Below, in pieces: positions 5,291 through 34,443 of a DNA stretch of 64,000 nt. The notes beneath the pieces were generated by a model. It saw only the letters and a program-made list of their open reading frames with translations, was not told the DNA's origin and ran no database searches. Origin of the DNA: Candidatus Hermodarchaeota archaeon (lineage in GTDB: Archaea > Asgardarchaeota > Heimdallarchaeia > Hodarchaeales > Hodarchaeaceae); assembly GCA_048886185.1 (NCBI GenBank), contig JBHLKY010000001.1, positions 130,436 through 194,435 on the forward strand, given 5' to 3'. Numbering within the stretch: position 1 is the first letter of the stretch; every line of letters starts with the position of its first letter. Position numbers and translations under genes: made by a program.

Positions 5291-5668
5291 TTATTCAGGT
5301 GCTTTTTGATCTACTGGGCTTTTCTTAGTGGTTCCACGTTCTATCCCTACTAGAACTATTTTTAGCGATTTAGTATATTTTTTCAATGCTTTTCTCCCTT
5401 CACTAGTTATGTGGACAACAGTTCTGGGACGGACATTCACAAAAGTCTTTTCCTGTTCCACAAAACCTACAGAAACAAGTTTAGTTAAGTGACTATTTAA
5501 ATTTCCTGATGTTACACCTAGTCCTTTTTGTAATACACTAAAGGTGAGTGATGAATTGAGATGTAGTAATGTTAATATTCCTAATCGCACTGGTTCATGA
5601 ATGGTAGAATCCAGTCCTCCGAGTAGGTTTTCCAGATAAGCTGGATTCTCTTCCATTTCAATACTCAT
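5291..5668 (-). CDS. ArsR/winged-helix transcriptional regulator
   Basis: 'VRLGILTLL...FSVLQKGLGVTSGNLNSHLTKLVSVGFV' is an HTH plus wing pattern. The gene is coupled (6-nt gap) to the upstream membrane-protein gene. Confidence 0.55.
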   Translation of the reverse strand: MSIEMEENPAYLENLLGGLDSTIHEPVRLGILTLLHLNSSLTFSVLQKGLGVTSGNLNSHLTKLVSVGFVEQEKTFVNVRPRTVVHITSEGRKALKKYTKSLKIVLVGIERGTTKKSPVDQKAPE

Positions 5669-5673
5669 CTCTA

Positions 5674-6378
5674 CTATTCTGCAGTTTCTACTAGGGCAAT
5701 ACCTTCTCTACCAGAATACCAGTATGTAAGCATACTAATTCCAATTAAAACAAAGCCAAATATATTACAGAAAAGAAACATTGCTGAATTGGGGTCTAAC
5801 TCATAGAATATTAAAGATGAGACAAATCCAAGGCATAAAGCGAATAATCCAAATGATAACAAGCCTAATCGTACTTTCACATTTCTCGTTTCTGCAAAGA
5901 GAATTCTACTTGCAAGTAAAAATCCAATCCCTGTGGTGGTACCCCATACAATAGGAATAAACTGGGAATTCATTGAATCTACAACACCAAGCACCAAAAC
6001 AAGAAAATGAGTAATAATGAACAATCCAACAATGATTGCTCCAATGGTTCGATAAGCTTTGTTCCAATTTATGAATCCTGGGGAGAAACCTGTTGTAAAA
6101 ATAATGACACCAATCAGAGGAATAAGATAAATAAACCACAAGCCAAAAAATAGAACTGGTTCGAGATTTGGAGCTAATCCAAGAATGAGGAATGTTGAAT
6201 CAACAGCTAAGAAGTAGTAACAAACATATTCAATCCAGCCACCAATGATAGCTACGAAACCAGTAAGACTTATGAAAAGTAAAAGGCGATTTGATTCCAT
6301 TTTTTCTTCAAAAGCAACAATTTTATCTAAAATTTCAAGAGTTGGCTGTAAATCTGATAGTAACTCCATTTCTATCAT
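5674..6378 (-). CDS. polytopic membrane protein of unknown function (about 6 TM)
   Basis: Hydrophobic helices run throughout. It is co-oriented and coupled with the ArsR-like gene. Confidence 0.5.
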   Translation of the reverse strand: MIEMELLSDLQPTLEILDKIVAFEEKMESNRLLLFISLTGFVAIIGGWIEYVCYYFLAVDSTFLILGLAPNLEPVLFFGLWFIYLIPLIGVIIFTTGFSPGFINWNKAYRTIGAIIVGLFIITHFLVLVLGVVDSMNSQFIPIVWGTTTGIGFLLASRILFAETRNVKVRLGLLSFGLFALCLGFVSSLIFYELDPNSAMFLFCNIFGFVLIGISMLTYWYSGREGIALVETAE

Positions 6379-6609: not shown

Positions 6610-7221
6610 TTGAATGGTGTAATTGTTTTGATAATTGATTCTATTATTTTTATCTTCCCAGCATTCGTTGCAAATGCTGCACCTACGATATTAGGTAAAG
6701 GTAAGCGCTTCAATGGACCTATTGATGGTGGAAGATTGTGGAAAGACAACAAAAGAATTTTAGGAGATGGTAAAACGATCCGAGGATTTGTTTCTGGAGT
6801 TTTCTGCGGAATGTTGACATGTGTTGCGATCATTATTCTTGGAAACTATACTGGTTATCCTTTGGTTTTTATGACCTACATGAAAGGAGGCCTTCTTTAC
6901 AATGTTTTAAAGCCATTAGATACTGCTATTTTGGACAATATGATACTCTTAGGATCATTAATTGGTTTTCTTCTTGGTTGTGGCGCTCTCATTGGTGACA
7001 TAATTGGAAGTTTTATAAAAAGACGTAGTGGACTCAAAAGAGGAGAATCCTATCCTTTAATGGATCAATTAGGTTTTTTAGTTACAGCACTGATCCTTGT
7101 ATATTTAGTAATCCCTTGGCCTGTCATTTGGCTTATATTTCTGGTGCCTATCAGTCTTGGTCTTCATATCAGTCTAAATTTGCTAAGTTATGTAGCTGGT
7201 GTCCAAGAAGTCCCACTCTAA
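6610..7221 (+). CDS. carS: CDP-archaeol synthase-like (CarS/DUF46) membrane protein
   Basis: 203-aa membrane protein with 'ANAAPTILGKGKRFNGPIDGGRLWKDNKRILGDGKTIRGF', which resembles the CarS cytidylyltransferase signature. Confidence 0.5.
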   Translation: MNGVIVLIIDSIIFIFPAFVANAAPTILGKGKRFNGPIDGGRLWKDNKRILGDGKTIRGFVSGVFCGMLTCVAIIILGNYTGYPLVFMTYMKGGLLYNVLKPLDTAILDNMILLGSLIGFLLGCGALIGDIIGSFIKRRSGLKRGESYPLMDQLGFLVTALILVYLVIPWPVIWLIFLVPISLGLHISLNLLSYVAGVQEVPL

Positions 7222-7444
7222 TTAATTCTCTTGGATTAGTATAATTCAGGTTTTAAAAGCAGTAGGGAGGATGAAACTTTCTCAAGTTGTTTAAAGCAAT
7301 ACTAAATCACTCATACTATTTTTTATAATTTATATAGCTAATATAATATTTTGGTTAGTTTCTACCACAAAGTAATTTCTTGTAGAAAGGTTCATCGGGT
7401 TTTTTAAACTCATAGATTCAAATTCACCTATAATTTTCTCAAAA

Positions 7445-7882
7445 GTGGGTGAAAAGAAGATGAACTTTTTGGCACATCTGATAGTGACATTAGTCTTTGT
7501 GAAAATAGCTGATTTATCGGGAATGAATATCTTTTGGGCTTTAATGTTCGGGGTGTTTATTGATTTTGATCATTTAATTAAACTACCTCTTTATATCAAG
7601 CAGAATGGTTTTAAAATAGTTAGGTACTGGAATTGGCGAACAGGGTTCCAGGAACCTGTCTCATTGTTATGGATTATACCTTTGAATATTTACATTCATA
7701 CATGGGTACCTGTATTCTTTTTCATAACTCATATTGTCTTAGATTATTTGATGAGTTATGAAAAGCAACCATTTTACCCTTTCTCTAGTTTTACTATCAA
7801 ACAACGGAAAATAAAGCTTGATGATTCTCTTGGAATAGTAACAGTGGTGATAGCAATATGCATATACGTATTCCTGGTTTAA
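7445..7882 (+). CDS. small membrane protein (possible DUF457-like membrane hydrolase)
   Basis: 3-4 TM helices and an 'FIDFDHL' motif. Weak. Confidence 0.3.
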   Translation: MGEKKMNFLAHLIVTLVFVKIADLSGMNIFWALMFGVFIDFDHLIKLPLYIKQNGFKIVRYWNWRTGFQEPVSLLWIIPLNIYIHTWVPVFFFITHIVLDYLMSYEKQPFYPFSSFTIKQRKIKLDDSLGIVTVVIAICIYVFLV

Positions 7883-8409
7883 AGAAACGATATGACCAAA
7901 TAATGATGCCAATAAGCGATTTCTTTCATATGACTTTGAAGTTACAGCCAAATCACGTATCTTGTATTGGATTTTTGATTGGACTTTTTTCTGTGATTTT
8001 AGTCCTCGGCGGTTATTGGCAAGCTGGATTAATAATAATGGCAGTTTCCCTCCTTTTTGACGGAATCGATGGAAATATTGCACGATTATATAGTTTAGAA
8101 AGTGAAACAGGAGAAAAACTTGAACTTCTATTTGATCGTTCTCTAGAAACGCTCTTGTTTTTAGCCTTTGCAATAGTTAATGGCATTAATTTTGGATTAG
8201 TCTTCTTAGTTATTTATTCCATCTTGCTTATGACATCATTGAGAGATAAGGCGAAATTTGATCCTGGATTAAAGAGAATTGCATTATTTCTGGGATTTAT
8301 CATTAGTTTTGAGATGATTTTCAATATTGTCTTTCTTGTACACATCGGTTCTTTCATGCTTCAAATCATAATCTTAGATTATGCAAATCAGAGAGGAGTA
8401 GGGGTTTAA
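7858..8409 (+). CDS. CDP-alcohol phosphatidyltransferase
   Basis: 'DGIDGNIARLYSLESETGEKLELLFDRSLE' fits the D-G-x2-A-R-x8-G-x3-D-x3-D signature on a membrane protein. Confidence 0.6.
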   Translation: MHIRIPGLKKRYDQIMMPISDFFHMTLKLQPNHVSCIGFLIGLFSVILVLGGYWQAGLIIMAVSLLFDGIDGNIARLYSLESETGEKLELLFDRSLETLLFLAFAIVNGINFGLVFLVIYSILLMTSLRDKAKFDPGLKRIALFLGFIISFEMIFNIVFLVHIGSFMLQIIILDYANQRGVGV

Positions 8410-8440
8410 TCCCCTCATAAAATTTTTAGAAATAAGATTA
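8398..8440 (+). terminator. hairpin (AGGGG-TTTAAT-CCCCT) followed by a T-run
   Basis: The inverted repeat is visible in the sequence immediately after the 8409 stop, followed by 'aaaattttt'. Confidence 0.3.
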
Positions 8441-8612
8441 TTAGAGGTGAAAGTGATATTTCTCGTTCTTAGTATTGATGAAGAAAAATGTTCATGGAAT
8501 TATATGAATGGAAATTATTTCCAAATTGTGAACTGTAATTATCTTTATAAGTTAAAGTTCCCAAATATGGTATATTTTTCTGTCCTAAGTTTTTACTCTC
8601 TTCAATCATTGA

Positions 8613-9929
8613 ATGAAAGATGAAATACTTGAGAATAAAGGGATTATTTTGAAAAATATTTCATTTAAGCACAAATTTTGCATATTTTTGATCGGCTTAT
8701 TGATTATTTGTATATTGAGTAGAATAAAAGAGAATCAGGGATTATTAAATTCGATAAGTTACTCTGATGGGGATTCTATATTTTGTAAATCATTAAATCC
8801 TAAAGTGACCGAACAAAATATCCCTGAAAGAGGATTTAACGATCATACTTATGAATTGATCCCGATTAGACGAAGTTGGTCAGCTGCTAGAGATGATTGT
8901 GAATCCCGGAGAGGACATTTAGTGACTATTACAAGCCAAGGAGAGAATAATATGGTAAGACACTTGATTGAATATGAAAGTGTTTGGATTGGTTTTACTG
9001 ATGAAGGAATTGAAGGGAGTTGGCGATGGATTACTGGGGAGTCTGTTACCTATATTAACTGGGCTGACGGCGAACCCAACGACAGTGGTGGTGAGGATTA
9101 CGTTGAACTTTACGAGAGTGGTGAATGGAATGATTTGTCTGGTTTAGAGGAGTTGTACTATATATGCGAATGGGATTCTACACACAATATAACAACTCCC
9201 ACAGTAATTTTCCCAAATGGGGGAGAAACTCTTGAAGGCATCATCAATGTTCTCTGGTCAGCATCAACCGATTCGTATGATCATCATGATGTCACCTATA
9301 AAGTTTCTTATTCCATCGATAATGGAGTTAATTGGAATCTAATAACTAAAGAAGTAGTTGCCACTAATTACGAATGGGATACCAGTACGATTCCTGAAGG
9401 AACTTCATTTCTGATCAAAGTAGTTGCAAAGTGTTCTCAAGGAAAAAATGTAGAGGATATCTCCGATGGTTCGTTTTTTGTGCATTATCTCACAAGGCTA
9501 ACGCTTCTGTCTCCTCATCAAGGTGATCGACTGAGAGGTATCAGTATTCTTAAATGGTCAGAATCAACTGATTCCTTAGGATATGCAGTCACATACTCAG
9601 TATTCTTTTCTATAGACAACGGGATGACCTGGGATTCATTAGTTACAGGGTTGATGACAAATAATTACAATTGGAATACATCAAAATTTGCTGATGGAAG
9701 ATATAAGATAAAAATTAGGACAATTAGTTCAGAGGGTCTAACTACTGAATACATTACTGAAGGGACATTTCTAATTGATAATATTCTAACAGATATTACA
9801 CTTATTGTACTTGGATTAGCACTCCTCATGATTTTTCCAGAATTGTTCTTCAGTAGAAAACTCAGCAACGTTCTTAGTCGTAAAAGAATAGAGATTGTTG
9901 AGAGAGAAGAAGGAGTGGGACAACCATGA
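8613..9929 (+). CDS. membrane-anchored C-type lectin domain protein with two tandem Ig/Fn3-like domains
   Basis: N-terminal TM; CTLD at about aa 82-187 ('WSAARDDCESRRGHLVTITS', 'WIGFTD', 'WADGEPND', 'EWNDLSG', 'YYICEW') with EPN (nt 9072-9080) and WND motifs; two beta-rich repeats of about 95 aa; C-terminal TM. Its stop overlaps the next start (ATGA at 9926-9929). Confidence 0.7.
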   Translation: MKDEILENKGIILKNISFKHKFCIFLIGLLIICILSRIKENQGLLNSISYSDGDSIFCKSLNPKVTEQNIPERGFNDHTYELIPIRRSWSAARDDCESRRGHLVTITSQGENNMVRHLIEYESVWIGFTDEGIEGSWRWITGESVTYINWADGEPNDSGGEDYVELYESGEWNDLSGLEELYYICEWDSTHNITTPTVIFPNGGETLEGIINVLWSASTDSYDHHDVTYKVSYSIDNGVNWNLITKEVVATNYEWDTSTIPEGTSFLIKVVAKCSQGKNVEDISDGSFFVHYLTRLTLLSPHQGDRLRGISILKWSESTDSLGYAVTYSVFFSIDNGMTWDSLVTGLMTNNYNWNTSKFADGRYKIKIRTISSEGLTTEYITEGTFLIDNILTDITLIVLGLALLMIFPELFFSRKLSNVLSRKRIEIVEREEGVGQP

Positions 9930-12900
9930 TTGAATCTGAAAAAAGAGCTAAGGAACTTGAAGAATTCACACCTATTGAACCAATATATCATGAAAATTTA
10001 ATTCGGAATTTGGTTCGATTTGCATCTTTGATAGTAATTGGACTTCTAGTAGGACAACCTGCACAAAACTATCTTCCAGAAATTTATCCAACCATATTAC
10101 ATCAGATGTTGGTCTTTACTCTTTTGATAGTTTTTCTCGTTGGGCTATTCTTTACATTTTCGCAGTTACGTTGGTTTAATGAAAAAAGAAACAAGTCAAC
10201 CAATTTAGGAGGGACTATGGGTTTATTTGGACTATTTCTAACACTCATTTGTAGTGTACTTTCATTGCTTACTGTTTCATCAGCAGTTCTTATCCCTCTA
10301 CTTGGTATAGGACTGTTTTTAACATTCTTAGGGTTCTTTATAGAGACAACTCGCATAGATGAACCATTGGTATATTGGTTCAGAATGAATCTGGAGGTTA
10401 TTATACGCTATTCGATAACGGGAACTGGAGCCTTTTTGATCAACTGGAGTGTATTAATGACAATTTTGCTCTTCTTGGGATATTCGGGTATATTACCACC
10501 TTTCTATGTCTGGCCTGGAGATTCAATTGGAGGATTATTATTAGGGAGTATTGGTTTGGTTCTTGTCTGGGGTTCTTGGTATCATAGAATCACTCAAACA
10601 CTCTGGAAATATCGGATTGAAATCATTAGAACAATCGAGTTAAGTATCAGTCAGGGTCTAATCCTCATAGCACTAATAGGTCCATTCTTAAATCCGGACT
10701 TTCTTCTATACAGCTCCATTTTAGGCATCGCAGGATTAGCAGTAATATATCTAGACCTATACATATTTAAAAAGAAGGTTTTTAGTAATTTTTCCAGCGG
10801 ATTTATATCCTCTAGTCAGGTTTATGCCTCTATCATTGGTCTAATCTTCATTCTTTATGGACTAATCTTGATTCAGCAGCCTAATTGGCGATATTTCACG
10901 ATCTATCTTTATGTAATGGGATGCTTGCTGCTCTACAGAGTCTGGTTTGATAAAACCAATTACACAATAAATCGTTCTGCTCAAATCTTCGTTTGGTTTT
11001 TCCGAACTCATTATAGAGAGGTTATTACCTCTTTTTGCTTTGTCTCTATGGCTTTAGGATCTTTTTTATTTGGATTCACAAGATTGTTTTTAAGAATTAA
11101 TGATTTTTTTGATCCTGTACCTTTAGGGTTATTTCTAGTTGGTTACGCAATTGGACTAGTGGTTTGGTATATTCCAAGTCGTCATACATACTATCGAGGT
11201 ATGACAACGTCGTTAAATTTCTATTTGTTGTTATGGGGAATTTTCCTTTTTATTTTCCTCTTGCAGATAGATTCTAATGATATGATACCTTATGTGATTT
11301 CAACTACAATGTTTGTTATGGGGATGAGTGTAAACGTATGGCTTTGGAAAAGAGAAATATACAATTCAACTAAAAATACACTTATCACAATAAAAAACAC
11401 AATTTTTCAAACAATTCATGTTGTTGCCCAGTTCTTCAAAACATATTACCGTGAATTATTAACTATTGGAATTCTAAGCCTTATAACATATGGACTTGTT
11501 GTAACGTGGAGTACAGTCATTCACCCTCCCTATTGGCCATTCTTGTTTTTGATAACTGGTTATGCTATGCTTTTAGCCATCTGGCGCTTTCCTAACCGTC
11601 ATGACTATTTTCGTGGAGTGACAACAACTCTTAGTACCGTAATGATCCTTTTTGGCTTAGTATTAGTATTTTTCCAGGATTATCAATCTATCATTTGGCT
11701 TTCTGGTGGAATAATCATTATTGGTGTTGTAGTCAATGGAGCAGCGTGGCAAACGGAACTTAAACTGCTATTAATTCAAACTGCTACTGCTATCAAGAAC
11801 GTAATTGTCCGAACTGGCGTAACATTGAGAAATTTCTTTATCACTGTTAAAAATGCATTTATCCAAACTATTCATGCTCTTATTCACTTTATCGATAAAT
11901 CCCTCCATACTATCTGGGACTATCGCGTTCCTCTCATGAGGTCGATCATGACAACTATTGGTGCAATTCTAGCCATCACAGGTTTTTTATCATGGATTTT
12001 AAATTACGTATTCGACATAACTTGGATCTCTGGTCTTGAACCTTCGTTCTTGATATCTGGTATGATCCTTCTTTATATAGCTTGGTTCTATCAAGTTAAC
12101 CAGATTGTTAAGCAATCCGCTATTGCTATTCGTAATGGACTTGTCCACGTTTTTCATATTATCGCGGACTTCCTTGTGGCCGCTAAGAATACTGTCATAG
12201 TTGTTTCTCACTATATCTGGGATCACCGTGTTGACATTTTAAGAGCTCTCGTAACAATGATTGGTATTGTTTTGATCTCTACTGGGATTATTCCAGCAGA
12301 TCTAATTGATATTGACTCAAATATGAAATTAGTATTAGTAATTGGAGGTATAATTGTATTGTATTTATCCTGGCTCCAACCAGTAAACCATTTCCTCATA
12401 AAAACCTTGATTGCAATTAAAAACTTCTTTGTTGCTGTTAAGGACGCCACTATCCAGTTTATTCAAACAGCTATCCAATTTCCTGTAAATACATATCGAA
12501 AAATAGTTAATTTTCTCCAAAAATACTATATTGAAATAATTCGCTATTCTGCTACAACTATTGGGGGCTTCTCCATTTTCTTTGGGTTTTGGGGAACATT
12601 GAGGCAGGAACCGTTTGGGCTACTCATTCTTATTGCAGGATTGGCTATCCTTTATGCTGCTTGGTTCCATCATGTCAATCAATTTATTATTAGAACAATC
12701 CAGTCCATAAAGGATGCCATAATCCACGCTGCTCACGCTATTGCTAATTTTCTCCAGAATGTCAAAAATGCAATTATGCGAACTTTTTCCGCAATTGGAT
12801 CTTTCATGCAAAAAATAGCAATCCAACTGAACCAATTACTCCGTTCTATTGTAGATTTAATTATCCCAATATTTCTTCTGATTTTGTCAATCTCGGCGCT

Positions 12901-13252
12901 TTTCTATGGTATCATTCTAATTTTGTCTGGAGTATTTGATCCGACTGGAGCTCTTTTTAGTGATCTTCTTCTTCCAATTCCTCTTTTTGGAGATCTTTTG
13001 GATTTTCTTGCTCGATTGCTTCAGGGAGAAATCTATGAAGGGAATATCCTAGGTGTTTTTGCTAATCAAGACCCCATATTTCAAATTCTGGTTGGTATAG
13101 GCATTATTATATTCGGTGGTGTTGTATTTTTATTTGTGGCGCTAAAGAAGGAGAAAATGAGAATTAGATCCCTTTTGAAGGCTGATGAAACGTATTCTCA
13201 AGCAACACTTGATAAAGAAGAGGTTAATGACCTTGATGGTGGTAAAAAGTGA
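9926..13252 (+). CDS. giant (1108 aa) polytopic membrane protein with about 5 internal repeat modules
   Basis: A soluble charged N-terminus is followed by more than 20 predicted TM helices. There are recurrent amphipathic modules '..AIKNxxVxxxxxxxNFFxxVKNAxIQTIHxxxxF..' (about 5 copies) and repeated 'W(Y/R)(I/F)P(S/N)RH(T/D)Y(Y/F)RG(M/V)TT' segments. It is translationally coupled on both sides. Confidence 0.6.
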   Translation: MIESEKRAKELEEFTPIEPIYHENLIRNLVRFASLIVIGLLVGQPAQNYLPEIYPTILHQMLVFTLLIVFLVGLFFTFSQLRWFNEKRNKSTNLGGTMGLFGLFLTLICSVLSLLTVSSAVLIPLLGIGLFLTFLGFFIETTRIDEPLVYWFRMNLEVIIRYSITGTGAFLINWSVLMTILLFLGYSGILPPFYVWPGDSIGGLLLGSIGLVLVWGSWYHRITQTLWKYRIEIIRTIELSISQGLILIALIGPFLNPDFLLYSSILGIAGLAVIYLDLYIFKKKVFSNFSSGFISSSQVYASIIGLIFILYGLILIQQPNWRYFTIYLYVMGCLLLYRVWFDKTNYTINRSAQIFVWFFRTHYREVITSFCFVSMALGSFLFGFTRLFLRINDFFDPVPLGLFLVGYAIGLVVWYIPSRHTYYRGMTTSLNFYLLLWGIFLFIFLLQIDSNDMIPYVISTTMFVMGMSVNVWLWKREIYNSTKNTLITIKNTIFQTIHVVAQFFKTYYRELLTIGILSLITYGLVVTWSTVIHPPYWPFLFLITGYAMLLAIWRFPNRHDYFRGVTTTLSTVMILFGLVLVFFQDYQSIIWLSGGIIIIGVVVNGAAWQTELKLLLIQTATAIKNVIVRTGVTLRNFFITVKNAFIQTIHALIHFIDKSLHTIWDYRVPLMRSIMTTIGAILAITGFLSWILNYVFDITWISGLEPSFLISGMILLYIAWFYQVNQIVKQSAIAIRNGLVHVFHIIADFLVAAKNTVIVVSHYIWDHRVDILRALVTMIGIVLISTGIIPADLIDIDSNMKLVLVIGGIIVLYLSWLQPVNHFLIKTLIAIKNFFVAVKDATIQFIQTAIQFPVNTYRKIVNFLQKYYIEIIRYSATTIGGFSIFFGFWGTLRQEPFGLLILIAGLAILYAAWFHHVNQFIIRTIQSIKDAIIHAAHAIANFLQNVKNAIMRTFSAIGSFMQKIAIQLNQLLRSIVDLIIPIFLLILSISALFYGIILILSGVFDPTGALFSDLLLPIPLFGDLLDFLARLLQGEIYEGNILGVFANQDPIFQILVGIGIIIFGGVVFLFVALKKEKMRIRSLLKADETYSQATLDKEEVNDLDGGKK

Positions 13253-14433
13253 CAGTTAATAGAAAGAGATCGAAAGAAAAATCAGATGATATAGCTAAAA
13301 TCCCAAACATCTCTCTCGATCAGGAGAAAGAAGCAAGGGGTAAACGTCTCCAGGAAGCATCATTTTCGGAACTTGTCTCATTTTCAAGATTTACACTAAT
13401 AGCAATCTGCATATTTATACTAGCTTTAATAATTTCAATTATTCTCCAATATAGCCCACTTGAAAACCCTGGACGATACGTAACTGGAATTATAGGGATT
13501 TCAATTCTTATCCTGCTCCTTAGTTTAATCGTTGATATTCTACGTTGGAGAGATTATACCGAATGGGGAGCTTTGGGAGCTTTAATCTCCTATGGTGGAA
13601 TTCTCCTAATTTTCATGCCACTTTCTCTCAATATGGTGATCCTGATCGAAGATGTTACTTTCCTGGTTCCATTCTTTGGAGAATTTAGCTTATATCTAAT
13701 AATCATTATTTTAGGTGTCGTCATTTTTACTATTGGATTCACTTCTAGAGCCACTGAACTTGACCACAAAATTGAAAACCTTCTCTTTATAATGAAGCAA
13801 TGGATAACTACATTTGCTTTTCGACAATTCTTTCGAACCCTTGGAGAGTTTATTCTAACATTTATTAGTGGATTTTTCAGGTATATTGGGAGGGGAATCC
13901 GAGAATTGAGAACTCGTATAGCAAGGCTTCTTAGATGGACAACACGATCTTTCATTTTCTTTTTAACCTCCATCAAGGATTTCTTTTACCATACCTTCCC
14001 CCAGATACTAAAACGATCATTGATCGGATTTTGGAACAATTTTCATTGGCTGGGATTAATTGCTGTTATCGTCTATGTTATTCTGACTGATATTCCTATT
14101 CCAAATATTGATCCTTTTCTTATCAAAGCAGAGCTACTTATTGTTATTGGTTTTTTCTTTTGTCTTGGGATCCTTTACCCTCAGAAAGACCGTTTTGCAC
14201 TAATTGCTAAGGGTATGAGGAGCTCTGTTCTTAGTAGAGTGATAAGTGCTTATAGTATGCTCTCAGGAACCAAAATAGAAATGGACAAAGCTATTTTCTG
14301 CTCTAGATGTCTTAGAGGGGTTGAAGTTAGAGAATTTGAATCCCTCATGGAAATTAAAGGGATGATAGATCCACCCTGCCCGTTTTGTGGATTTAATAGT
14401 TGGATTGGATCTGAAAAAGTGTCTATCCCTTAA
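13249..14433 (+). CDS. membrane protein with a C-terminal CxxC...CxxC zinc ribbon (GTG start)
   Basis: The GTG start overlaps the upstream TGA. There are multiple TM helices and a C-terminal 'CSRCLRGVEV...CPFCGF'. Confidence 0.5.
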   Translation: MTVNRKRSKEKSDDIAKIPNISLDQEKEARGKRLQEASFSELVSFSRFTLIAICIFILALIISIILQYSPLENPGRYVTGIIGISILILLLSLIVDILRWRDYTEWGALGALISYGGILLIFMPLSLNMVILIEDVTFLVPFFGEFSLYLIIIILGVVIFTIGFTSRATELDHKIENLLFIMKQWITTFAFRQFFRTLGEFILTFISGFFRYIGRGIRELRTRIARLLRWTTRSFIFFLTSIKDFFYHTFPQILKRSLIGFWNNFHWLGLIAVIVYVILTDIPIPNIDPFLIKAELLIVIGFFFCLGILYPQKDRFALIAKGMRSSVLSRVISAYSMLSGTKIEMDKAIFCSRCLRGVEVREFESLMEIKGMIDPPCPFCGFNSWIGSEKVSIP

Positions 14434-14535
14434 GACAAGCTTTTGCAAAAGGAGAAACTCGAAGTTCCCACTATTCCAAAACCTCATCCAAAAGAATCTA
14501 TTTCTCCTTCTGAAATAGTAATGACTGATGAATAG

Positions 14536-15948
14536 AAGAAAGCTATTAAAAAAGGTCACTTTCCTGATTATCAATCATATCAGCGGGCACAGAACCTCGG
14601 AGCACAGACTCACTCTGAAGTGGAGTTCATCGATCGCCTTGGGGCCCCGAATTTAGCTATAGCTGAAAAAATCAAAGCAGGGGGATTTTCTCATTTTGAA
14701 ACATACCAAAAAGCTCAGGCTGTTGGTGCTTCTACTGCCTCGGAATTATCTTTGATAACAGAATTGCAAGCTCCTGATTTAGCTACTATGAAAGAAATTC
14801 AGAAAGGTAAATTTCCTGATTTTCCATCTTATCAACGAACGTAGAATCTCGGAGCTTCAACCTATTACGAACTAGAAGTTATTGATCACCTTGGAGCCCC
14901 TAATTTTAAAACTGTTGAGAAAATTAAAAATGGAGGATTTCGTGATTATAAAAATTATGAGAAAGCTTTGGCGGTTGGAGCTTCCAATATATCTGAATTG
15001 CGTATAGTAAAAAAATTCAATGCTCCAGATCTGAGTACTGCGAGAAAAATTCAGAAAAGGAGATTTCCAGACTATCAAACGTTTAAACGAGCTCAGGATC
15101 TGGGAGTGCAAAAGTATTCTGATTTAAGAATCATTGATCGTTTTAAAGCTCCAGACCTTGAGACAGCGAAGAAAATCATTGATAGCGGTTTCTCTACTCT
15201 TGAAACTTATCAAAAAGCTCAAACTATTGGTGCTTCCACTTTCTCAGAATTAAAATTAATTGAAAAATTACAAGCTCCTGATTTAGCTACCACGAGAGAA
15301 ATTCAGAGCGGAAATTTCCCTGATTATCAAACCTATCGACAGGCACGAAGCCTTGGAGCACGAACTTACTCTGAACTACAGTTAATGACTAAACGACCAA
15401 CTATCAGTGCTGATGTTGAAGTACAATCTGCACAAGAAAAAATAAGCTCCAAGAGAGTGATAGAAGAGATTAGTGCGGAAGTAGGAACCCAGACATTGAT
15501 CACAAAGAAACTGCAAGACGAAAGATTATTCCCAATTGATGAAGAGGCAATCGAAGTTTCATCAAAGATTGAAGAGCCACAAAAAGAAGTACAGGTTTCT
15601 GTCCCTGACATAAGAGATGAATCACTTATCAGGAAAAGAGATGCTCCTGCTGAAGAAATACCAAGTACAGAACGAAAAATTTCGAAAAAAGAAGTTCCTG
15701 TAAAACAAGTAATCGAGATAATTGACGTATTCTTTGCTTCTGATTTGTTAGTAACATCAGAAACCCAAGATAAATGGGACATGCATAAAAAGGAGTATTA
15801 TCGTCAACGAACGTTATTCCTTGACTTTGGAGAGCTCAGTGAATCCTCCTTTAGGTCTTATCTTCAGAAATTGAGAATGTTTTTCACTCAGGAAATGGGT
15901 ATTCAACACGACAAATTATTCAAACTAGACGTAGAAGACACTGAATAA
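14536..15948 (+). pseudogene. 42-aa tandem-repeat protein gene interrupted by an in-frame TAG (no ATG start; possibly disrupted or non-canonical)
   Basis: One frame is open from 14536 to 15948 apart from TAG at 14842-14844, which replaces a conserved Gln of the repeat. The frame is continuous with upstream gene 13249-14433 across TAA 14431-33 and TAG 14533-35. There is no in-frame ATG before repeat 7. Confidence 0.4.
14560..15390 (+). repeat. about 6.6 copies of a 126-nt (42-aa) tandem repeat in perfect register
   Basis: Repeat units start at 14560, 14686, 14812, 14938, 15064, 15190 and 15316. Consensus is 'FPDYQTYxxAQxLGAxTYSELxLIxxLxAPDLxTAKKIQxGx'. Confidence 0.8.
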
Positions 15949-21190: not shown

Positions 21191-22699
21191 ATGAAATCCT
21201 CATTCAATAATAAAATGGATCTCAATGATGAAACCAAGGCATTTTTTAACTTTATTACGCATCCAACTAAATTAGAATCATTAATCATGTTAGAACAGCT
21301 TATTAAAGACACTAAGGATGAAAATCTAAGATGTTTCTGGAAAATACTTTCAGATAAAAATCTAGAATGTTTTAGACTTACATGTAAAGAAAATAATACA
21401 TCTAAGGAAGTATATTATATTGATCTTGAAACTCCGATATTATTTTATCCTGTATTCCAGAATCACATCTCTTTAAATATTGCCTCGAATTTTTTTTCTC
21501 TAGCGAGTAAAATTAAGTCAAATTTATTGAATTTCTATAGTCAAGAAGTCGAAAGTTCTTTTATTTTAATAAAAAAAGGTACAACTGAAAAATTGGTTGA
21601 TTCTTATACTTTTAAAGTAGAAGATCAGGATATCAAATTGTTACAAAGGTCTAATCTTTATAGATCTAGGAGAAAAGAAATATCCCAAAAGAATTTAGAC
21701 AATTTTCTTAAGAATAACGAGTCTATGTTAAATAATAGATTAAAAAAAGACGAAGGGGTTTATGCTTCGCTTGGAGATCATTTGTTATTTAAATCAGATA
21801 GTTTAAATCTTCAAAATGGCAAAAAGCGCTTTCCTGTTGGTCAACGAAACCCCAAAAATCGCTTGAATCTGTTAACGGGGAGAGAATGGATAAAATTTTC
21901 TAAAACATGGTTTATTCATCGTCCTCCATCACGAAAAGATGAAGAATTTTTACATCCTGCTAAATTCCCTGAGACACTTATTAGAAAGTTTATCACCTTT
22001 TTTACAAAACCAGGTGAATTAGTGCTAGATCCATTTCTTGGTACTGGAAGCGCGCTCATCGCTGCTAAACAGAGCAACAGGAGTGGAGTGGGAATTGAAC
22101 TCTCTCCTACTTACGCTAAAATTTCTAAAAACCGTTTAAAAGGAATAAATTCTCTATTATATCCCCCTTTATACCAAACTGATGAATCATGCTTTTGGAA
22201 GGTTATTTGTGGAGATTCTAGGAATTTAAATGACTACTGGGAGGATTTTAATTTACCAACTGTTGATTTTTGTATCACGAGCCCTCCTTATTGGAATCAG
22301 CTCCAACGAAATACTATTCGACAAAGGAAACGAAAACATGAGGGCTTAGATACACAATATAGTTATGATGATCCAAAGGATTTAGGGAACATTGATAATT
22401 ATAACAACTTCCTAAGTGAACAACAGAAAATATTTGGTAATGTTTACGAAATTCTACGACCTAATGGATACTTAGTCATAATCACAAATCATGTTTTTAC
22501 AGATGGACAGGTTTATCCCTTAGCTTATGACACAGTATCTAGTTTAATTAATGATAAAAAACATAATTGGATACAAAAAGATGAAAAAATATGGTTACAA
22601 GATGATAAGTCCTTGGTGGCATTAGGGGTAAATTATGCTTGGGTTGGAAATAGGTGCCACCAGTATTGTCTTATTCTAAGAAAAGAAGTATCAAACTAG
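21191..22699 (+). CDS. DNA methyltransferase (N4-C/N6-A, SPPY type) with a 240-aa N-terminal domain of unknown function
   Basis: 'HPAKFPETLIRKFITFFTKPGELVLDPFLGTGSALIAA' (AdoMet motif I region) precedes 'ITSPPYWN' (motif IV) by about 80 aa. This is a permuted order relative to beta-class enzymes. No adjacent nuclease gene. Confidence 0.7.
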   Translation: MKSSFNNKMDLNDETKAFFNFITHPTKLESLIMLEQLIKDTKDENLRCFWKILSDKNLECFRLTCKENNTSKEVYYIDLETPILFYPVFQNHISLNIASNFFSLASKIKSNLLNFYSQEVESSFILIKKGTTEKLVDSYTFKVEDQDIKLLQRSNLYRSRRKEISQKNLDNFLKNNESMLNNRLKKDEGVYASLGDHLLFKSDSLNLQNGKKRFPVGQRNPKNRLNLLTGREWIKFSKTWFIHRPPSRKDEEFLHPAKFPETLIRKFITFFTKPGELVLDPFLGTGSALIAAKQSNRSGVGIELSPTYAKISKNRLKGINSLLYPPLYQTDESCFWKVICGDSRNLNDYWEDFNLPTVDFCITSPPYWNQLQRNTIRQRKRKHEGLDTQYSYDDPKDLGNIDNYNNFLSEQQKIFGNVYEILRPNGYLVIITNHVFTDGQVYPLAYDTVSSLINDKKHNWIQKDEKIWLQDDKSLVALGVNYAWVGNRCHQYCLILRKEVSN

Positions 22700-29986: not shown

Positions 29987-32287
29987 TTGAGAGATTCAAA
30001 GTGCTATACTGAAGAGGAAATTTTAGCAGCTTTAACAAATGCTGTTGATGAGGTTGAAGTCTACACTAGGAAAATTGGCTTTGAAAAGTTTGAACAACCC
30101 CTTGGGTTCTTTTTTGCTCGGGTTTTGGATAATAAAATTACTCGATCTGAGAAAAGAGGAAAAGAACTTAAAACAGCAATTATAAGAGGTGCTGCGTTCA
30201 TTGTAGTAATTCAAATTCTGATATATACTGTGTTATTAAAAGAGGATTCTAAAAGCAGTTTAATTAATACAATACATGATTCTAAACATCTACAATCTTA
30301 TTTTGATGAAATTGAAAACGAAAAGAATTTTGGAGCTATCTTTAATGCTAGGATTGTTGAATTACTTCCTAAAGAATCAGCTGTGACTCTAAATCACGTT
30401 TTTCAATCATTTATCTCTTTTAATAAGTCGCAGTTCACTTCTGATATTCTTGGGAAAATTTTCCATGGATTAATCCCCTTTGAGCTGAGGAAATTTCTTG
30501 CTGCATATTATACCTCAAACGTTGTTGGAGGATTTCTATCATATTTAGCAATAAAAAACGACCAAGTTAAAATCATGGATCCAGCTTGTGGTTCTGGGAC
30601 TCTATTAGTGAGCGCTTATAAGCGAATCATAGAGATCAATAGAAATCTGGATCATAATCAAATTTTACGGAATATCTATGGAGTTGATGTTTCAGCATTT
30701 GCAGCTCAGCTTGCTGCAATTAATCTTGCGATTCAAAAACCTACTGATTCCTGGAACACTTGTAATATTGCCATTCTTGACTTTTTTAGATTAGAAATCG
30801 GAGATAAGGTAGTAGGTTTTAAAGTCCCCAAATTTGATGTTTTTATTGGAAATCCCCCATTTACTCGTGGTGATCGATTAGATAGTGAGTATAAGGACTT
30901 CTTACAAAATCATCTTCTTCATAAAGGAATTTCCTTTGATTATAATAAAAAATATTTGGGTTTATATGCATATTTTCTTCTAGATTCTTTAAGATTCTTG
31001 AAAGCGGAAGGAATCCTTGCTTTTATTCTTCCTCTTTCATTAATTAACTCTTTCACAATGAAACCTGTTCTGAAGTTTTTGATGTCAAAATTTCTCTTTA
31101 TTTACATTATTACATCAGAAGCTCAAATTACTTTTTCAGAGCAGTGCTCATTTAAAGAGATTCTCTTGATTGCCCAAAAAGGGAGAAAGAAGAGTTTTGG
31201 AACTAAATTCGTCACATTAAAAAAGGAATTAACAGATACTAATTATCGAAAAATAGCTGAAACAATAGAAAAGACTACGAAAAATTATGAAGACACAAAT
31301 ATACGAATTAGAACTATTTCAACAAAGACTCTGAAAGAAACTCTAAAAATGAACTGGATTGTATATTTTTACAATAGTAAATTCATCACCATTTTTGATC
31401 AGATAAGACGGTCCGATACGATTTCTCTAGTAAACGAAATAGTTGAAAATCCTCGGTATGATGTGGATCGGGGACTCCGTGCTGGAATTTCTGATTTCTT
31501 TTATCTCCCCAATAAATTCTGGAAAATTGTTGATACATCGAATAATGGGATTAAAATAAAGAATATTAGAGACAGTTCTATTCTAAATCTGTCTTCTAAA
31601 TATCTTGCACCTGTGTTAAGAAAATCTTCTCACTGTAGATGTGTTATTCCAGAATCTTCTGACTATATTGTCGTAATTCCTGATAAAAATGAAAAGGAAA
31701 AAGATGTTGATAATTATATCAAGTGGGCTGTTCAGAAGTTCCAAAAAACAGGATTTGAATCACTAACATTCAGGCATATCAGTCAAAAACGCAAAATTGC
31801 TAGAGTAGCAATCACTCATAAGCTTAGTCTTATAAGTAGTAAGATTATCACTTATTACTCCCCAAAGCCCATTGTTTTAACTGATAATTTTATCTTCATT
31901 AGAACTTTTAATAAAGAGAACGACAAAATTCTAGCTGCTTACTTGAATAGCTCAATATTTCTCTTAACTTATCTTATTCTACGTCGAGAGAAAAGTGGTG
32001 CTCTTGGCCAAATATTTGGTACTGATGTGAGGAATTTCTTTTGTTTGGATCCCCGAAAGGTGAGTTATTCTGACCGATTAGAGCTTATTAAGTTATTTGA
32101 TCATTTTATTAAGGAATCAAGCTTTTTTCCCTCTTTTCGTGAACAGATTAACAAAGCGAAAGAGGAGAGGGATAACATTAGATTTCTACTGGATGAAAAG
32201 ATCTGTGAGACACTTGGAATCAAAGATATTCCACTGTTCTTGAAACAACTTTATGAAACATTAATTGAGGAATTGAAGAAGTTTTAA
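29987..32287 (+). CDS. gamma-class N6-adenine DNA methyltransferase (Eco57I/TaqI-like), TTG start
   Basis: 'LAAYYTSNVVGGFL', motif I 'MDPACGSGTLLVSA', motif IV 'FIGNPPFTRGD', and a roughly 450-aa C-terminal target-recognition region. The first in-frame ATG lies inside motif I, so the start must be non-ATG. Confidence 0.75.
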   Translation: MRDSKCYTEEEILAALTNAVDEVEVYTRKIGFEKFEQPLGFFFARVLDNKITRSEKRGKELKTAIIRGAAFIVVIQILIYTVLLKEDSKSSLINTIHDSKHLQSYFDEIENEKNFGAIFNARIVELLPKESAVTLNHVFQSFISFNKSQFTSDILGKIFHGLIPFELRKFLAAYYTSNVVGGFLSYLAIKNDQVKIMDPACGSGTLLVSAYKRIIEINRNLDHNQILRNIYGVDVSAFAAQLAAINLAIQKPTDSWNTCNIAILDFFRLEIGDKVVGFKVPKFDVFIGNPPFTRGDRLDSEYKDFLQNHLLHKGISFDYNKKYLGLYAYFLLDSLRFLKAEGILAFILPLSLINSFTMKPVLKFLMSKFLFIYIITSEAQITFSEQCSFKEILLIAQKGRKKSFGTKFVTLKKELTDTNYRKIAETIEKTTKNYEDTNIRIRTISTKTLKETLKMNWIVYFYNSKFITIFDQIRRSDTISLVNEIVENPRYDVDRGLRAGISDFFYLPNKFWKIVDTSNNGIKIKNIRDSSILNLSSKYLAPVLRKSSHCRCVIPESSDYIVVIPDKNEKEKDVDNYIKWAVQKFQKTGFESLTFRHISQKRKIARVAITHKLSLISSKIITYYSPKPIVLTDNFIFIRTFNKENDKILAAYLNSSIFLLTYLILRREKSGALGQIFGTDVRNFFCLDPRKVSYSDRLELIKLFDHFIKESSFFPSFREQINKAKEERDNIRFLLDEKICETLGIKDIPLFLKQLYETLIEELKKF

Positions 32288-32322: not shown

Positions 32323-34443
32323 GTGACAATAGAAGAAAGGTTTCCCATTACTATTATTCAACAACTGGCAAAAATAGAGTCTCAGCGACGGCAATTTTAC
32401 CGACCGATATATTCTATCCATAAATCCTGGGCCAGAAGACCAGGGACAACAATACGTGCAATAGGTCTTTCTCATTTCTATCAAGATACTCTCTTTAATT
32501 CTAATCATATAGAAGAAGGAGGATTTTACCAAAATCATTATTTCCAAGGGAAAATTGCTCTCGATCCCTTCTGTGGTGGAGGAACGAGTATAGTTGAGCT
32601 TCATCGTCTTGGAATAAAAACAATTGGGATTGATGTAAATCCAATAGCTTGGTTCACTACAAAAAAGGAATTGGATTCATTTAATGAAGCCACTTTTAAC
32701 CAAGAAGTTAAAAAAATCTTTCAAAGCGTTGGCCAACGAATTAAATCTTATTATAAAACAATATGTCCAAGCTGTCACTATTCTGATGCTGATATTATGT
32801 ATATATTTTGGGTAAGAACCATTCAATGTCCTTCGTGCAACTCCGAGGAAGATCTATTCAAGTATTATATTATTGGTAAGAAGCAACGGAAACATAAAGC
32901 AACAATGGTGATATGTCCTTCTTGTGATCATTTATTTTATACATGGAAGAAGGTTAAAGAAATATCATCTTGTCCAGAATGTCAACATGAGTTTATTCCG
33001 ATACAAGGGAATTGTCGCTTGAAAAAATTCACCTGTACTCATTGTCAGAAAGAATCTAGACTTGTTGAGATACTCCAACAACCTACAAATTCTTTTTCTG
33101 CAAGACAAATAGCAATAGAATTCTTTTGTCCCGAATGTCGAACACGTGATTATAAACCAGTAAATAAAGAAGATAGAAATCTTTTTACACAAGTACAAGA
33201 AGAATTCATGATAAAAAAGGATGAACTCTTATATCCACATGAATTATTACCAATTGAAGGGGATAATATATCAAACCTTAGAAATTATGGTTTTCAACGA
33301 TTTTCAGATCTGTTCAATGAAAGACAGCTACTAAGTTTGAGTCTCCTCATACAAGCAATATCAAAAGTTGCAGATCAGAATATTAGAGAATTTCTCTTGT
33401 CTGCATTTTCTAGTTGTTTAGAATTTCATACTGTAATCTGTCCTTATAATTATACAATGAAACAGATTGTAAATGTGTTTAACTATCAATCTTTTCTTGT
33501 ACCAACCATGTATGTAGAAAATAATGTTTGGGGGACGAAAAAAGGGAATGGAACTTTCATTACTTACCTCGAGAGGATAAAAAAAGCCAAAAAATATTGC
33601 AGATCACCTTTTGAAATAGCTTTTCAGAATAACCAGATTATACGAATCTCTGTACCAGGAGATAATATCGAAGCCAAGTCCGTTAAGACCTTTCAGGAAC
33701 TTCAAGCAAGTTCTAGAGCTGAAACTTTACTTATTAATGATTCCTCTGAAAACCTTCAGAGATTGGGTATTCCTAAGGCTTCTGTCGACATAATAGTGAC
33801 TGATCCTCCTTATTTTGACTATATTCAGTACTCTGAATTGGCTAATTTTTTCTATGTCTGGTTGAGAATAGTTTTGAGACCTTTATACTCAGAATTTCAT
33901 TCTAATTTAATCAATACTGAATATGAAATTGGTAGATTAAAACAAGAGAACCATTTCCTTGAGGGAATAACTAAAGTATTTCAAGAATGTTATAGGGTTT
34001 TAAAGCCAGAAGGTCCGATGATTTTTACATTTCATCATTCTAGTGAAACAGCATGGGCAATGATATTAGAGGCTTTAGCCAAAAGCCAATTCCTAATAAC
34101 TGCTACATTTCCTGTTCGAAGTGAATTTGGTGCTCGTCCTGTTAAAGGACAAAACTTTGATTTTATCATTATATGCAGAAAATATTCAAAAGTAAACCTC
34201 GCCATGAATCATATAAGTCGAACAGTATTAGAGTCAGAGATAAAAAGAAGTTTAGATGATTTTTCAGTTGTTTCTCCTCGAGAACCTGATCTTACTCCGT
34301 GGGGGGTTGCATTTGCGTCTATTCTCCCTATGATATCAAAATTCTCTACATTAAATCAATCTGTAGATATTGAAGAAATCATATTACACACCTTTACCCT
34401 CCTCAAAAACCTTAAAATTCAATATAATTCTAAAACACCTTAA
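32323..34443 (+). CDS. adenine-specific DNA methyltransferase with internal multi-CxxC zinc-ribbon module (COG1743/DUF1156-like)
   Basis: N-terminal 'YRPIYSIHKSWARRPG', motif I 'LDPFCGGGTSIVELHRLG', six CxxC pairs (CPSC..CPSC, CPSC..CPEC, CTHC..CPEC), motif IV 'IVTDPPYFDYIQYSELANFFYVWLR', and 'FTFHH'. Confidence 0.7.
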   Translation: MTIEERFPITIIQQLAKIESQRRQFYRPIYSIHKSWARRPGTTIRAIGLSHFYQDTLFNSNHIEEGGFYQNHYFQGKIALDPFCGGGTSIVELHRLGIKTIGIDVNPIAWFTTKKELDSFNEATFNQEVKKIFQSVGQRIKSYYKTICPSCHYSDADIMYIFWVRTIQCPSCNSEEDLFKYYIIGKKQRKHKATMVICPSCDHLFYTWKKVKEISSCPECQHEFIPIQGNCRLKKFTCTHCQKESRLVEILQQPTNSFSARQIAIEFFCPECRTRDYKPVNKEDRNLFTQVQEEFMIKKDELLYPHELLPIEGDNISNLRNYGFQRFSDLFNERQLLSLSLLIQAISKVADQNIREFLLSAFSSCLEFHTVICPYNYTMKQIVNVFNYQSFLVPTMYVENNVWGTKKGNGTFITYLERIKKAKKYCRSPFEIAFQNNQIIRISVPGDNIEAKSVKTFQELQASSRAETLLINDSSENLQRLGIPKASVDIIVTDPPYFDYIQYSELANFFYVWLRIVLRPLYSEFHSNLINTEYEIGRLKQENHFLEGITKVFQECYRVLKPEGPMIFTFHHSSETAWAMILEALAKSQFLITATFPVRSEFGARPVKGQNFDFIIICRKYSKVNLAMNHISRTVLESEIKRSLDDFSVVSPREPDLTPWGVAFASILPMISKFSTLNQSVDIEEIILHTFTLLKNLKIQYNSKTP

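Follow-up and report, generated by a model that had tools for sequence, protein, structure and literature searches.

A putative three-gene module of lectin, giant membrane protein and zinc-ribbon protein in Hodarchaeales-type Asgard archaea, with its repeat arm severed by stop codons in one genome

The DNA analysed here, referred to throughout as the window, is a stretch of 64,000 nucleotides (nt) from Candidatus Hermodarchaeota archaeon (assembly GCA_048886185.1, contig JBHLKY010000001.1, positions 130,436 to 194,435 of the forward strand). Between window positions 8613 and 15948 lies a cluster of three genes, encoding a surface C-type lectin (gene 1), a giant polytopic membrane protein (gene 2) and a membrane protein with a zinc (Zn) ribbon (gene 3). 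The third gene is interrupted by in-frame stop codons, beyond which the same reading frame encodes a series of 42-amino-acid (aa) repeats. The features of the cluster, with transmembrane abbreviated as TM and open reading frame as ORF, are as follows.

8613..9929, forward strand: gene 1, 438 aa, type-I surface C-type lectin (ORF scan, Pfam and hydropathy)
9926..13252, forward strand: gene 2, 1108 aa, giant polytopic membrane protein (ORF scan, hydropathy and family alignment)
13249..14433, forward strand: gene 3, retained part, 394 aa, six-TM core with Zn ribbon (ORF scan and alignment)
14434..15948, forward strand: gene 3, severed 3′ part in the same frame, with linker, 42-aa repeats, acidic spacer and helical module
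14431..14433, forward strand: stop 1, in-frame TAA ending the 394-aa ORF; orthologues have ATA (four), GTA, AAC, ACA or GCA
14533..14535, forward strand: stop 2, in-frame TAG in the linker before repeat 1; orthologues have GAT (five), GAA, GAC or TAT
14842..14844, forward strand: stop 3, in-frame TAG in repeat unit 3, at the conserved Gln of QRAQ(N/D)LG; orthologues have CAA (six), CAG or CAC

A first-pass annotation, made from the letters of the window, had read this region as four co-expressed products, three of them linked by 4-nt overlaps and the last being a separate repeat ORF in frame with the ribbon gene. The overlaps are as it described: the stop of gene 1 and the start of gene 2 share ATGA at 9926–9929, and gene 2 and gene 3 share GTGA at 13249–13252, so that gene 3 starts with GTG. 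Translation of 14434–15948 also bears out the common frame, which gene 3 shares with ORFs at 14620–14844 (74 aa) and 14968–15948 (326 aa). The count of four products does not stand. The cluster consists of three genes, the third of them interrupted, and the repeat ORF shares the frame of gene 3 because it is the 3′ part of that same gene, broken in the window genome.

The evidence for a single, broken gene comes from its relatives. In each of the nine orthologous loci compared (L007 (CP070695), L008, L010 (CP070665), L011, L013, L015 (CP070760), L016, L020 and L021), gene 3 encodes one protein of 890–1412 aa with no internal stop. In alignment, the window sequence is colinear with these intact orthologues from the 394-aa product through the linker and the repeats to the C-terminal helical module, with no frameshift in 1.5 kb, and the repeat homology continues across the TAA at 14431 and the TAGs at 14533 and 14842. 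The 326-aa ORF starts with TTG at 14968 inside repeat unit 4, and the 74-aa ORF with GTG at 14620 inside unit 1. With such starts, and with its sequence fused to the ribbon protein in 9/9 loci, the repeat ORF is not an independent gene. For annotation, the four-gene reading becomes one of three genes, in which gene callers split the interrupted gene 3 into three “hypothetical proteins.”

The stops are present in five independent assemblies (L001–L005), which are identical to the window over the 13.9–15 kb compared, all three stops included; a sixth, 4-kb contig (L006) is also identical and ends ahead of the stops. Since five independent assemblies agree, the stops are real, and an assembly or sequencing error is ruled out as their source. 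Among the loci compared, gene 3 is disrupted only in the window genome, and as nonsense codons cut off its repeat part, this organism most likely produces no repeat protein. The ratio of repeat identity to core identity is 1.11 for the remnant and 1.22 ± 0.18 for intact pairs, a comparison with no power either way, as the extra divergence estimated for three neutral nonsense hits (~8%) is within the noise of the ratio test. The remnant having no measurable extra divergence, either the disruption is recent or the test is underpowered. Even the nearest orthologues share only ~55% identity with the window copy, a distance at which dS would be saturated.

At least 10 further loci show this arrangement together with the start/stop overlaps. 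Genes 2 and 3 are adjacent, overlapping or abutting, in L007, L008, L010, L011, L013, L020, L021, L022/L023 and L024/L025, and the overlaps are of 1–11 nt across three divergent subfamilies. The first subfamily is the window type. In the second (L024/L025), a giant of 1762 aa, which hhalign matches to the family with a probability of 100% and E=4e-131, overlaps P0050, a protein of 472 aa in which the gene 3 core is preceded by an N-terminal Zn ribbon. The third (L022/L023) has an 845-aa giant-like protein, P0017, followed by a 369-aa protein whose TM part matches the gene 3 core (probability 98.4%, E=4e-15) and in which a weak RING hit replaces the ribbon. The coding region of a gene 1-type protein runs into the start of gene 2 in the window, L007, L008, L021 and L024/L025, loci that belong to two of the three subfamilies. 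Conserved synteny, which the first-pass annotation had named as a check on its proposed system, is therefore found for the gene 2/gene 3 pair, with gene 1 upstream in L007, L008, L021 and L024/L025.

The head of gene 1 is a C-type lectin-like domain (CTLD) at aa 87–186 (nt 8871–9170), matching Pfam Lectin_C (PF00059) with E=3.1e-21 (76.6 bits against a cut-off of 22.6) over profile positions 3–106 of 107. The first-pass CTLD assignment, made from the letters alone, survives this profile search with a score above the gathering score. Among solved relatives (phmmer against PDB) are DEC-205 (2.3e-34), SP-D (8e-17) and MBP-A (1e-14), with PLA2R and the mannose receptor also among the best; the matches of the head to solved animal CTLDs range from 1e-12 to 1e-34. 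The segment GEPNDSGGEDYVELYESGEWND contains EPN at aa 154–156 (9072–9080) and WND at aa 172–174 (9126–9134), both kept in the L021 and L008 orthologues. These are the sugar-binding motifs of Ca2+ site 2, of mannose type, and they make gene 1 a putative glycan-binding protein. The CTLD contains only two Cys residues, Cys96 and Cys185, which fit the alpha1-beta5 pair; the second disulfide pair is absent. A template/variable repeat of the kind associated with diversity-generating retroelements was searched for in connection with the lectin, and none was found.

The remainder of gene 1 consists of an N-terminal signal anchor (aa 20–38), a stalk of two Asp-box beta-sandwich domains (SIDNGxxW at 9312–9335 and 9609–9632), a C-terminal TM helix (aa 395–413) and a basic C-terminal tail of 25 aa (PELFFSRKLSNVLSRK...EEGVGQP, 9837–9926). 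The TM-tail motif PELYxGRRLSxxLSRK..EEGV is common to gene 1-type proteins with different heads. The L021 orthologue is a 415-aa lectin of identical architecture with the tail PELYLGRRLRNVLSRKRVETVKREEGVGQV; those of L008 (944 aa, CTLD 54% identical) and L024 (903 aa, tail IPELYLGKKFSNLVSRQKLEEGVETS) combine a CTLD with a beta-helix; and that of L007 (965 aa) has a beta-helix head without CTLD. Variable heads on a conserved sandwich-TM-tail portion suggest that the tail is the part relevant to the neighbouring genes.

Gene 2 contains about 22–24 hydrophobic segments in a crude Kyte-Doolittle scan. In the family alignment it is laid out as an N-terminal domain, about eight tandem units of ~100 aa and a C-terminal domain, each unit consisting of YYRE..R..T..G, a TM helix, a short loop, a second TM helix ending LY.AWF.QVN.F.KQ and then a basic amphipathic helix of ~45 aa. 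Orthologues differ by insertions and deletions of whole units and range from 1108 to 1762 aa. Amphipathic windows amount to 13.3% as opposed to 3.8 ± 1.4% in shuffles, a 3.5-fold enrichment, and the segments are net basic. The short loops are nearly uncharged, which suits a cytoplasmic position of the amphipathic helices; in both gene 2 and gene 3, the basic N-terminus and loops agree with the positive-inside rule. The hydrophobic segments and the enrichment lend support to the earlier prediction of a protein of more than 20 TM helices with amphipathic repeats. No match to gene 2 was found in Pfam, NCBIfam or PADLOC, and the invariant columns of the family alignment contain no Cys or His. Its 17 homologues, where a source is named, all come from Asgard metagenome-assembled genomes (MAGs) labelled Heimdall-, Hod- or Promethearchaeota. 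A residue-identical protein occurs in GCA_048938455.1 (JBHLMD010000002.1, “Promethearchaeota archaeon”) and in the Logan assemblies of SRR30758823, -26, -27, -28 and -29.

The core of gene 3 combines a basic N-terminus with six TM helices, among which lies a basic amphipathic insert of 96 aa, and continues with a SAYSMLSG motif and the Zn ribbon. The ribbon, CSRC (14299–14310)-x22-CPFC (14377–14388), comprises C351, C354, C377 and C380, which are invariant in a six-sequence core alignment (the window and five orthologues) and nearly invariant among 33 sequences. The two CxxC knuckles are conserved across the family, in keeping with the Zn-ribbon membrane protein first proposed here. The AlphaFold2 (AF2) model shows short strands at the ribbon region; no curated Zn-ribbon Pfam model matches this internal ribbon, and only the extra terminal ribbons of relatives are matched. 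The window copy retains every invariant column of the core alignment. A natural core-only relative is also found: P0037, of 402 aa, is encoded on a 167-kb contig, and its next gene is on the opposite strand. All homologues of gene 3 with a source name are labelled as Asgard MAGs.

A weak resemblance links the two membrane proteins. The N-terminal four-TM region of gene 3 (13249–13800) aligns with the N-terminus of gene 2 (9926–10410) at an hhalign probability of 10% (E=0.003), through the segments LRWRDY..EWGALGA and GFTSRATELD in gene 3 and LRWFNEKRNKSTNLGG and GFFIETTRIDE in gene 2. The two may have a distant common origin, on which nothing below relies.

The severed part of gene 3 contains 6.6 units of the 42-aa repeat (14560–15396), followed by the acidic spacer. 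The underlying DNA repeats every 252 nt, corresponding to two alternating 42-aa subtypes of 60–71% identity, and within the window the hidden Markov model (HMM) of the repeat matches the gene 3 tail only. In the AF2 model of the intact orthologue P0029 (mean predicted local distance difference test score, pLDDT, 77.5), the repeats are modelled at pLDDT 90–97; helices of 10 residues recur at 14-residue intervals, giving three to each 42-aa unit. The repeat has no match in Pfam or PDB, nor any by fold. It superficially resembles helix-hairpin-helix (ComEA-like) DNA-binding repeats in its pattern (h..hG...A..I..G.F) and in a short helix-loop-helix periodicity; this assignment was rejected, there being no profile or fold match to the helix-hairpin-helix families. 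After the repeats comes a helical module, present in one copy in the window (from ~15709 to 15945; KWDMHKKEYYRQRTLFLDFGELSESSFRSYLQKL). In gene 3 orthologues this module (~45–60 aa, KWD/EW..W...Q...YL.G.IS...F...LK.L) follows the repeats in 1–4 copies, for example at L008 13861–17244, and it also stands alone in other representative proteins (profile positions ~719–819).

The repeat is widespread beyond gene 3. An exhaustive profile search returned 477 representative proteins at E≤1e-3, many matching the repeat part of the profile alone, and the repeat HMM matched 73 proteins beyond the first 50 ids, in 70 distinct clusters. Two architectures recur. In one, a large ectodomain is followed by one TM helix and by 2–4 repeats that start 20–50 residues past it, the ectodomains including WD40 propellers with TSP3, SBBP propellers, Laminin_G_3 with Ig-like domains, FN3, and NosD/beta-helix with Big_13. 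In the other, a polytopic N-terminus is followed by repeats and a C-terminal RING finger. The repeat is also found in soluble proteins such as P0061. All matches with an organism name are Asgard MAGs, mostly Hodarchaeales/Hodarchaeota or Kariarchaeaceae, with two Thor-/Odinarchaeota labels. Being common to receptor tails and RING proteins, the repeat is most likely a shared docking or oligomerisation module with a common intracellular partner.

Upstream of the cluster the window contains a pair of genes that is also found beside the module elsewhere.

5291..5668, reverse strand: HTH_34 winged-helix regulator (Pfam HTH_34, 1.3e-19), forming a divergently transcribed pair with 5674..6378
5674..6378, reverse strand: 234-aa polytopic membrane protein, partner of the HTH_34 gene, with no Pfam or PADLOC match

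An HTH_34 gene and a membrane protein of 214–237 aa accompany the module in L007, L008, L010, L011, L013, L020, L021 and L022/L023. In these relatives the divergent pair abuts the module; only in the window genome is it separated from the lectin gene, by genes at 6610–8409 whose products are CDP-archaeol synthase (CarS), a membrane protein of 145 aa with a weak YdjM hit, and a CDP-alcohol phosphatidyltransferase. Small GTPase genes of the Arf/Ras/Roc family lie a few kb from the module in several divergent loci (L010 6414–6806, L011 4007–4573, L024 11460–12011 and L019 18682–19209), and none was seen beside it in the window. In L015 (CP070760.1, Heimdallarchaeota bin272; 7954–9998), only the last 209 codons of the giant gene remain (9369–9998), still overlapping gene 3, and a 455-aa ORF lies on the opposite strand directly upstream of this remnant. 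This suggests that an insertion or rearrangement destroyed the giant gene and left gene 3 intact.

Taken together, these observations lead us to propose, with a probability of roughly 55%, that the cluster is a tripartite envelope module of Heimdallarchaeia/Hodarchaeales-type Asgard archaea, encoded by three translationally coupled genes, whose repeat arm was recently lost in the window genome. Gene 1 would present a sugar-binding, EPN-type lectin head on its two Asp-box beta-sandwich domains, anchored in the membrane through its TM helix and short basic tail. For gene 2, a chain of TM hairpins and basic amphipathic helices at the cytoplasmic face, we favour the role of a membrane platform or scaffold over that of an enzyme or transporter. 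Gene 3 would be a six-TM protein with a cytoplasmic zinc ribbon, whose intact forms project an array of 42-aa repeats, each of three helices, together with helical modules into the cytoplasm, where the repeat would serve in docking or oligomerisation and couple surface receptors to a common intracellular partner. From the conserved order and overlaps of the genes, which are observed directly, we infer that the products form a complex into which gene 1 would dock through its tail. In the window organism a TAA and two TAGs would recently have cut the repeat arm, leaving the lectin, the giant and a gene 3 product of 394 aa, reduced to the core, as the proteins that the cell probably produces, and the repeat ORF as an untranslated remnant. 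Adhesion/sensing or membrane remodelling, the roles first suggested for the cluster, remain a reasonable guess.

Several points weigh against this proposal. The complex is argued from gene order, overlaps and tail conservation, and the architecture of gene 2 from hydropathy and motif periodicity, since its all-helical AF2 model is of low confidence (mean pLDDT 53.8). Gene 1 is absent beside the pair in L010, L011, L013, L020 and L022; the pair often occurring without it, the lectin would be a frequent accessory and not a core component. The other synteny of these loci (FGGY kinase, HAD, SDR and FtsX/ABC genes) reflects close genome relatedness and carries less weight. Finally, three stops with little other decay are somewhat unexpected for a neutral pseudogene, and residual function or read-through is possible.

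The proposal can be extended, though with a low probability, to a previously undescribed receptor-scaffold system made up of the giant, the gene 3 core and the repeat, in which adhesion-type ectodomains (lectin, beta-helix, propellers, LamG or FN3) would be wired via the repeat to a membrane platform and to RING-type ligases, as an archaeal forerunner or analogue of eukaryotic receptor-to-cortex/ubiquitin coupling. Asgard archaea are the lineage reported to be closest to eukaryotes. If the parts interact as gene order suggests, the module would be a lineage-specific link from the recognition of extracellular glycans or partners to intracellular machinery. No eukaryotic homologues of the module were detected; it is conserved in, and confined to, a lineage central to eukaryogenesis. 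Three testable objects are provided by the cluster, namely a coupled membrane module outside the family databases, a shared TM-tail motif and an unnamed 42-aa cytoplasmic repeat, and the truncation in the window is a natural “mutant” without the repeat arm.

A different emphasis, compatible with the tripartite module and not exclusive of it, is that the cluster encodes a device for curvature or mechanosensing, in which TM hairpins and in-plane amphipathic helices shape or sense the membrane, for instance at protrusions, with the lectin and the repeats peripheral. We regard this as unlikely. The hairpin-plus-amphipathic-helix unit repeated about eight times, the enrichment of amphipathic windows in gene 2 and the presence together in gene 3 of TM hairpins, a basic amphipathic region of 96 aa and a zinc finger on the cytosolic side are all consistent with such a device, as is the adjacency to CDP-archaeol synthase and CDP-alcohol phosphatidyltransferase genes, but that adjacency is peculiar to the window genome, the AF2 model of the giant is of low confidence, and no sequence or fold match to any such family was obtained. 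The analogy, for which reticulon/REEP, Lunapark and the Piezo blade are the models, is one of architecture and a lead only.

It is also conceivable, though quite unlikely, that genes 2 and 3 are a sorting or anchoring machinery that processes, inserts or anchors gene 1 through a C-terminal TM-tail signal. The idea draws on the conserved TM helix and PELYxGRRLSxxLSRK..EEGV tail shared by differently headed gene 1 proteins, and on the invariable position of their genes directly upstream of the giant gene. Sortase-type sorting signals have their motif ahead of the TM helix and basic residues behind it; the conserved motif of gene 1 comes after the helix. No sortase match was found in Pfam or NCBIfam, the pair occurs without gene 1 at several loci, and gene 2 has a variable number of units and no invariant Cys or His.

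For the severed part of gene 3, an adaptive truncation is an improbable alternative to a dead remnant. In such a functional fission the 326-aa ORF would be expressed from TTG 14968 as a separate, soluble repeat protein. The NCBI and Logan gene callers do annotate both the 74-aa and the 326-aa ORFs, the remnant is well conserved, and the 42-aa repeat occurs in soluble proteins elsewhere, such as P0061. However, both ORFs start at non-ATG codons in the middle of a repeat, ~180 codons of repeat sequence fall outside any ORF, and the gene is split in 0/9 orthologues. The stretch 14434–15000 contains a single TATA-like sequence, TTTAAAA at 14905, ~60 nt ahead of the TTG.

Programmed recoding or read-through, by which the TAA and two TAGs would be decoded (as pyrrolysine, as Gln or by leaky termination) and full-length gene 3 made, perhaps at a low or regulated level, is highly improbable. 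In its favour, the frame is preserved for 505 codons past the first stop, the similarity of the remnant to orthologues equals that among intact genes, and one TAG replaces a conserved Gln codon. Against it, two different stop codons are involved, long ORFs in the window terminate with TAA (31/50), TAG (8/50) and TGA (11/50), no other gene in the 64-kb window has an internal stop flanked by homology, no tRNA gene lies within it, and a stop occurs at these positions in 0/9 orthologues. Reassignment of TAG, including to pyrrolysine, was rejected on the evidence of the 64-kb window, in which TAA also interrupts the gene and both codons are ordinary terminators.

Two further regions of the window were noted. 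Five DNA methyltransferase genes lie within 28 kb at 21191–48962: three of the N6_N4_Mtase type (21191–22699, 32323–34443 and 36245–38422) and two of the N6_Mtase/Eco57I type (29987–32287 and 47010–48962). The G+C content falls to 0.30 at 20–22 kb, and 21191–48962 may be a restriction-modification/defence island or a mobile region. At 55598–60196 a 1532-aa ORF without a solid Pfam assignment encodes a large uncharacterised repeat protein, with an internal direct repeat of 213 nt (58029–58241 / 58425–58637, 71% identity).

When the cluster is compared with known systems, the CTLD of gene 1 is its only part that belongs to a known family, which agrees with the initial impression that the arrangement matches no characterised system. 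Gene 2, the gene 3 core, the 42-aa repeat and the C-terminal helical modules have no curated family, solved relative or fold match; they appear to lie outside known kinds of system, and the functions given to them here are proposals from sequence. The search for anti-phage defence genes with PADLOC gave no match for the cluster products or the intact orthologue, and in the literature on Asgard/Hodarchaeales lectins, RING and transmembrane proteins no description of these families was found.

With the C-type lectins (MBP-A, SP-D and the DEC-205/mannose receptor group) gene 1 shares membership of PF00059, the EPN and WND motifs and type-I display. It differs from them in being archaeal, in having one of the two canonical disulfide pairs (Cys96-Cys185), in its stalk of Asp-box beta-sandwich domains, in a TM-tail conserved with beta-helix-headed paralogues and in its genetic coupling to a giant membrane protein. 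A likeness to the exosortase/PEP-CTERM and archaeosortase/PGF-CTERM systems, in the form of diverse heads, a conserved TM helix with basic tail and an adjacent polytopic protein, is a lead only; these systems differ in the order of the motif, and the giant here has no invariant Cys or His and often occurs, with gene 3, without a surface protein.

Reticulon/REEP proteins and Lunapark have TM hairpins with cytoplasmic amphipathic helices, and Lunapark adds a cytosolic CxxC...CxxC zinc finger after the TM part. The likeness of the module to them is one of architecture, namely hairpins with amphipathic helices and, in gene 3, a Lunapark-like zinc finger. There is no detectable similarity of sequence or structure; where those proteins have two hairpins, gene 2 has ~22 TM helices arranged as about eight tandem units, and it is coupled to a surface lectin and to an array of 42-aa repeats. 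Membership of these families is not claimed. A functional analogy can be drawn, finally, to eukaryotic-style type-I receptors with adaptor tails: the Asgard repeat directly follows the single TM helix of adhesion-type ectodomains, and it is also found fused to RING fingers.

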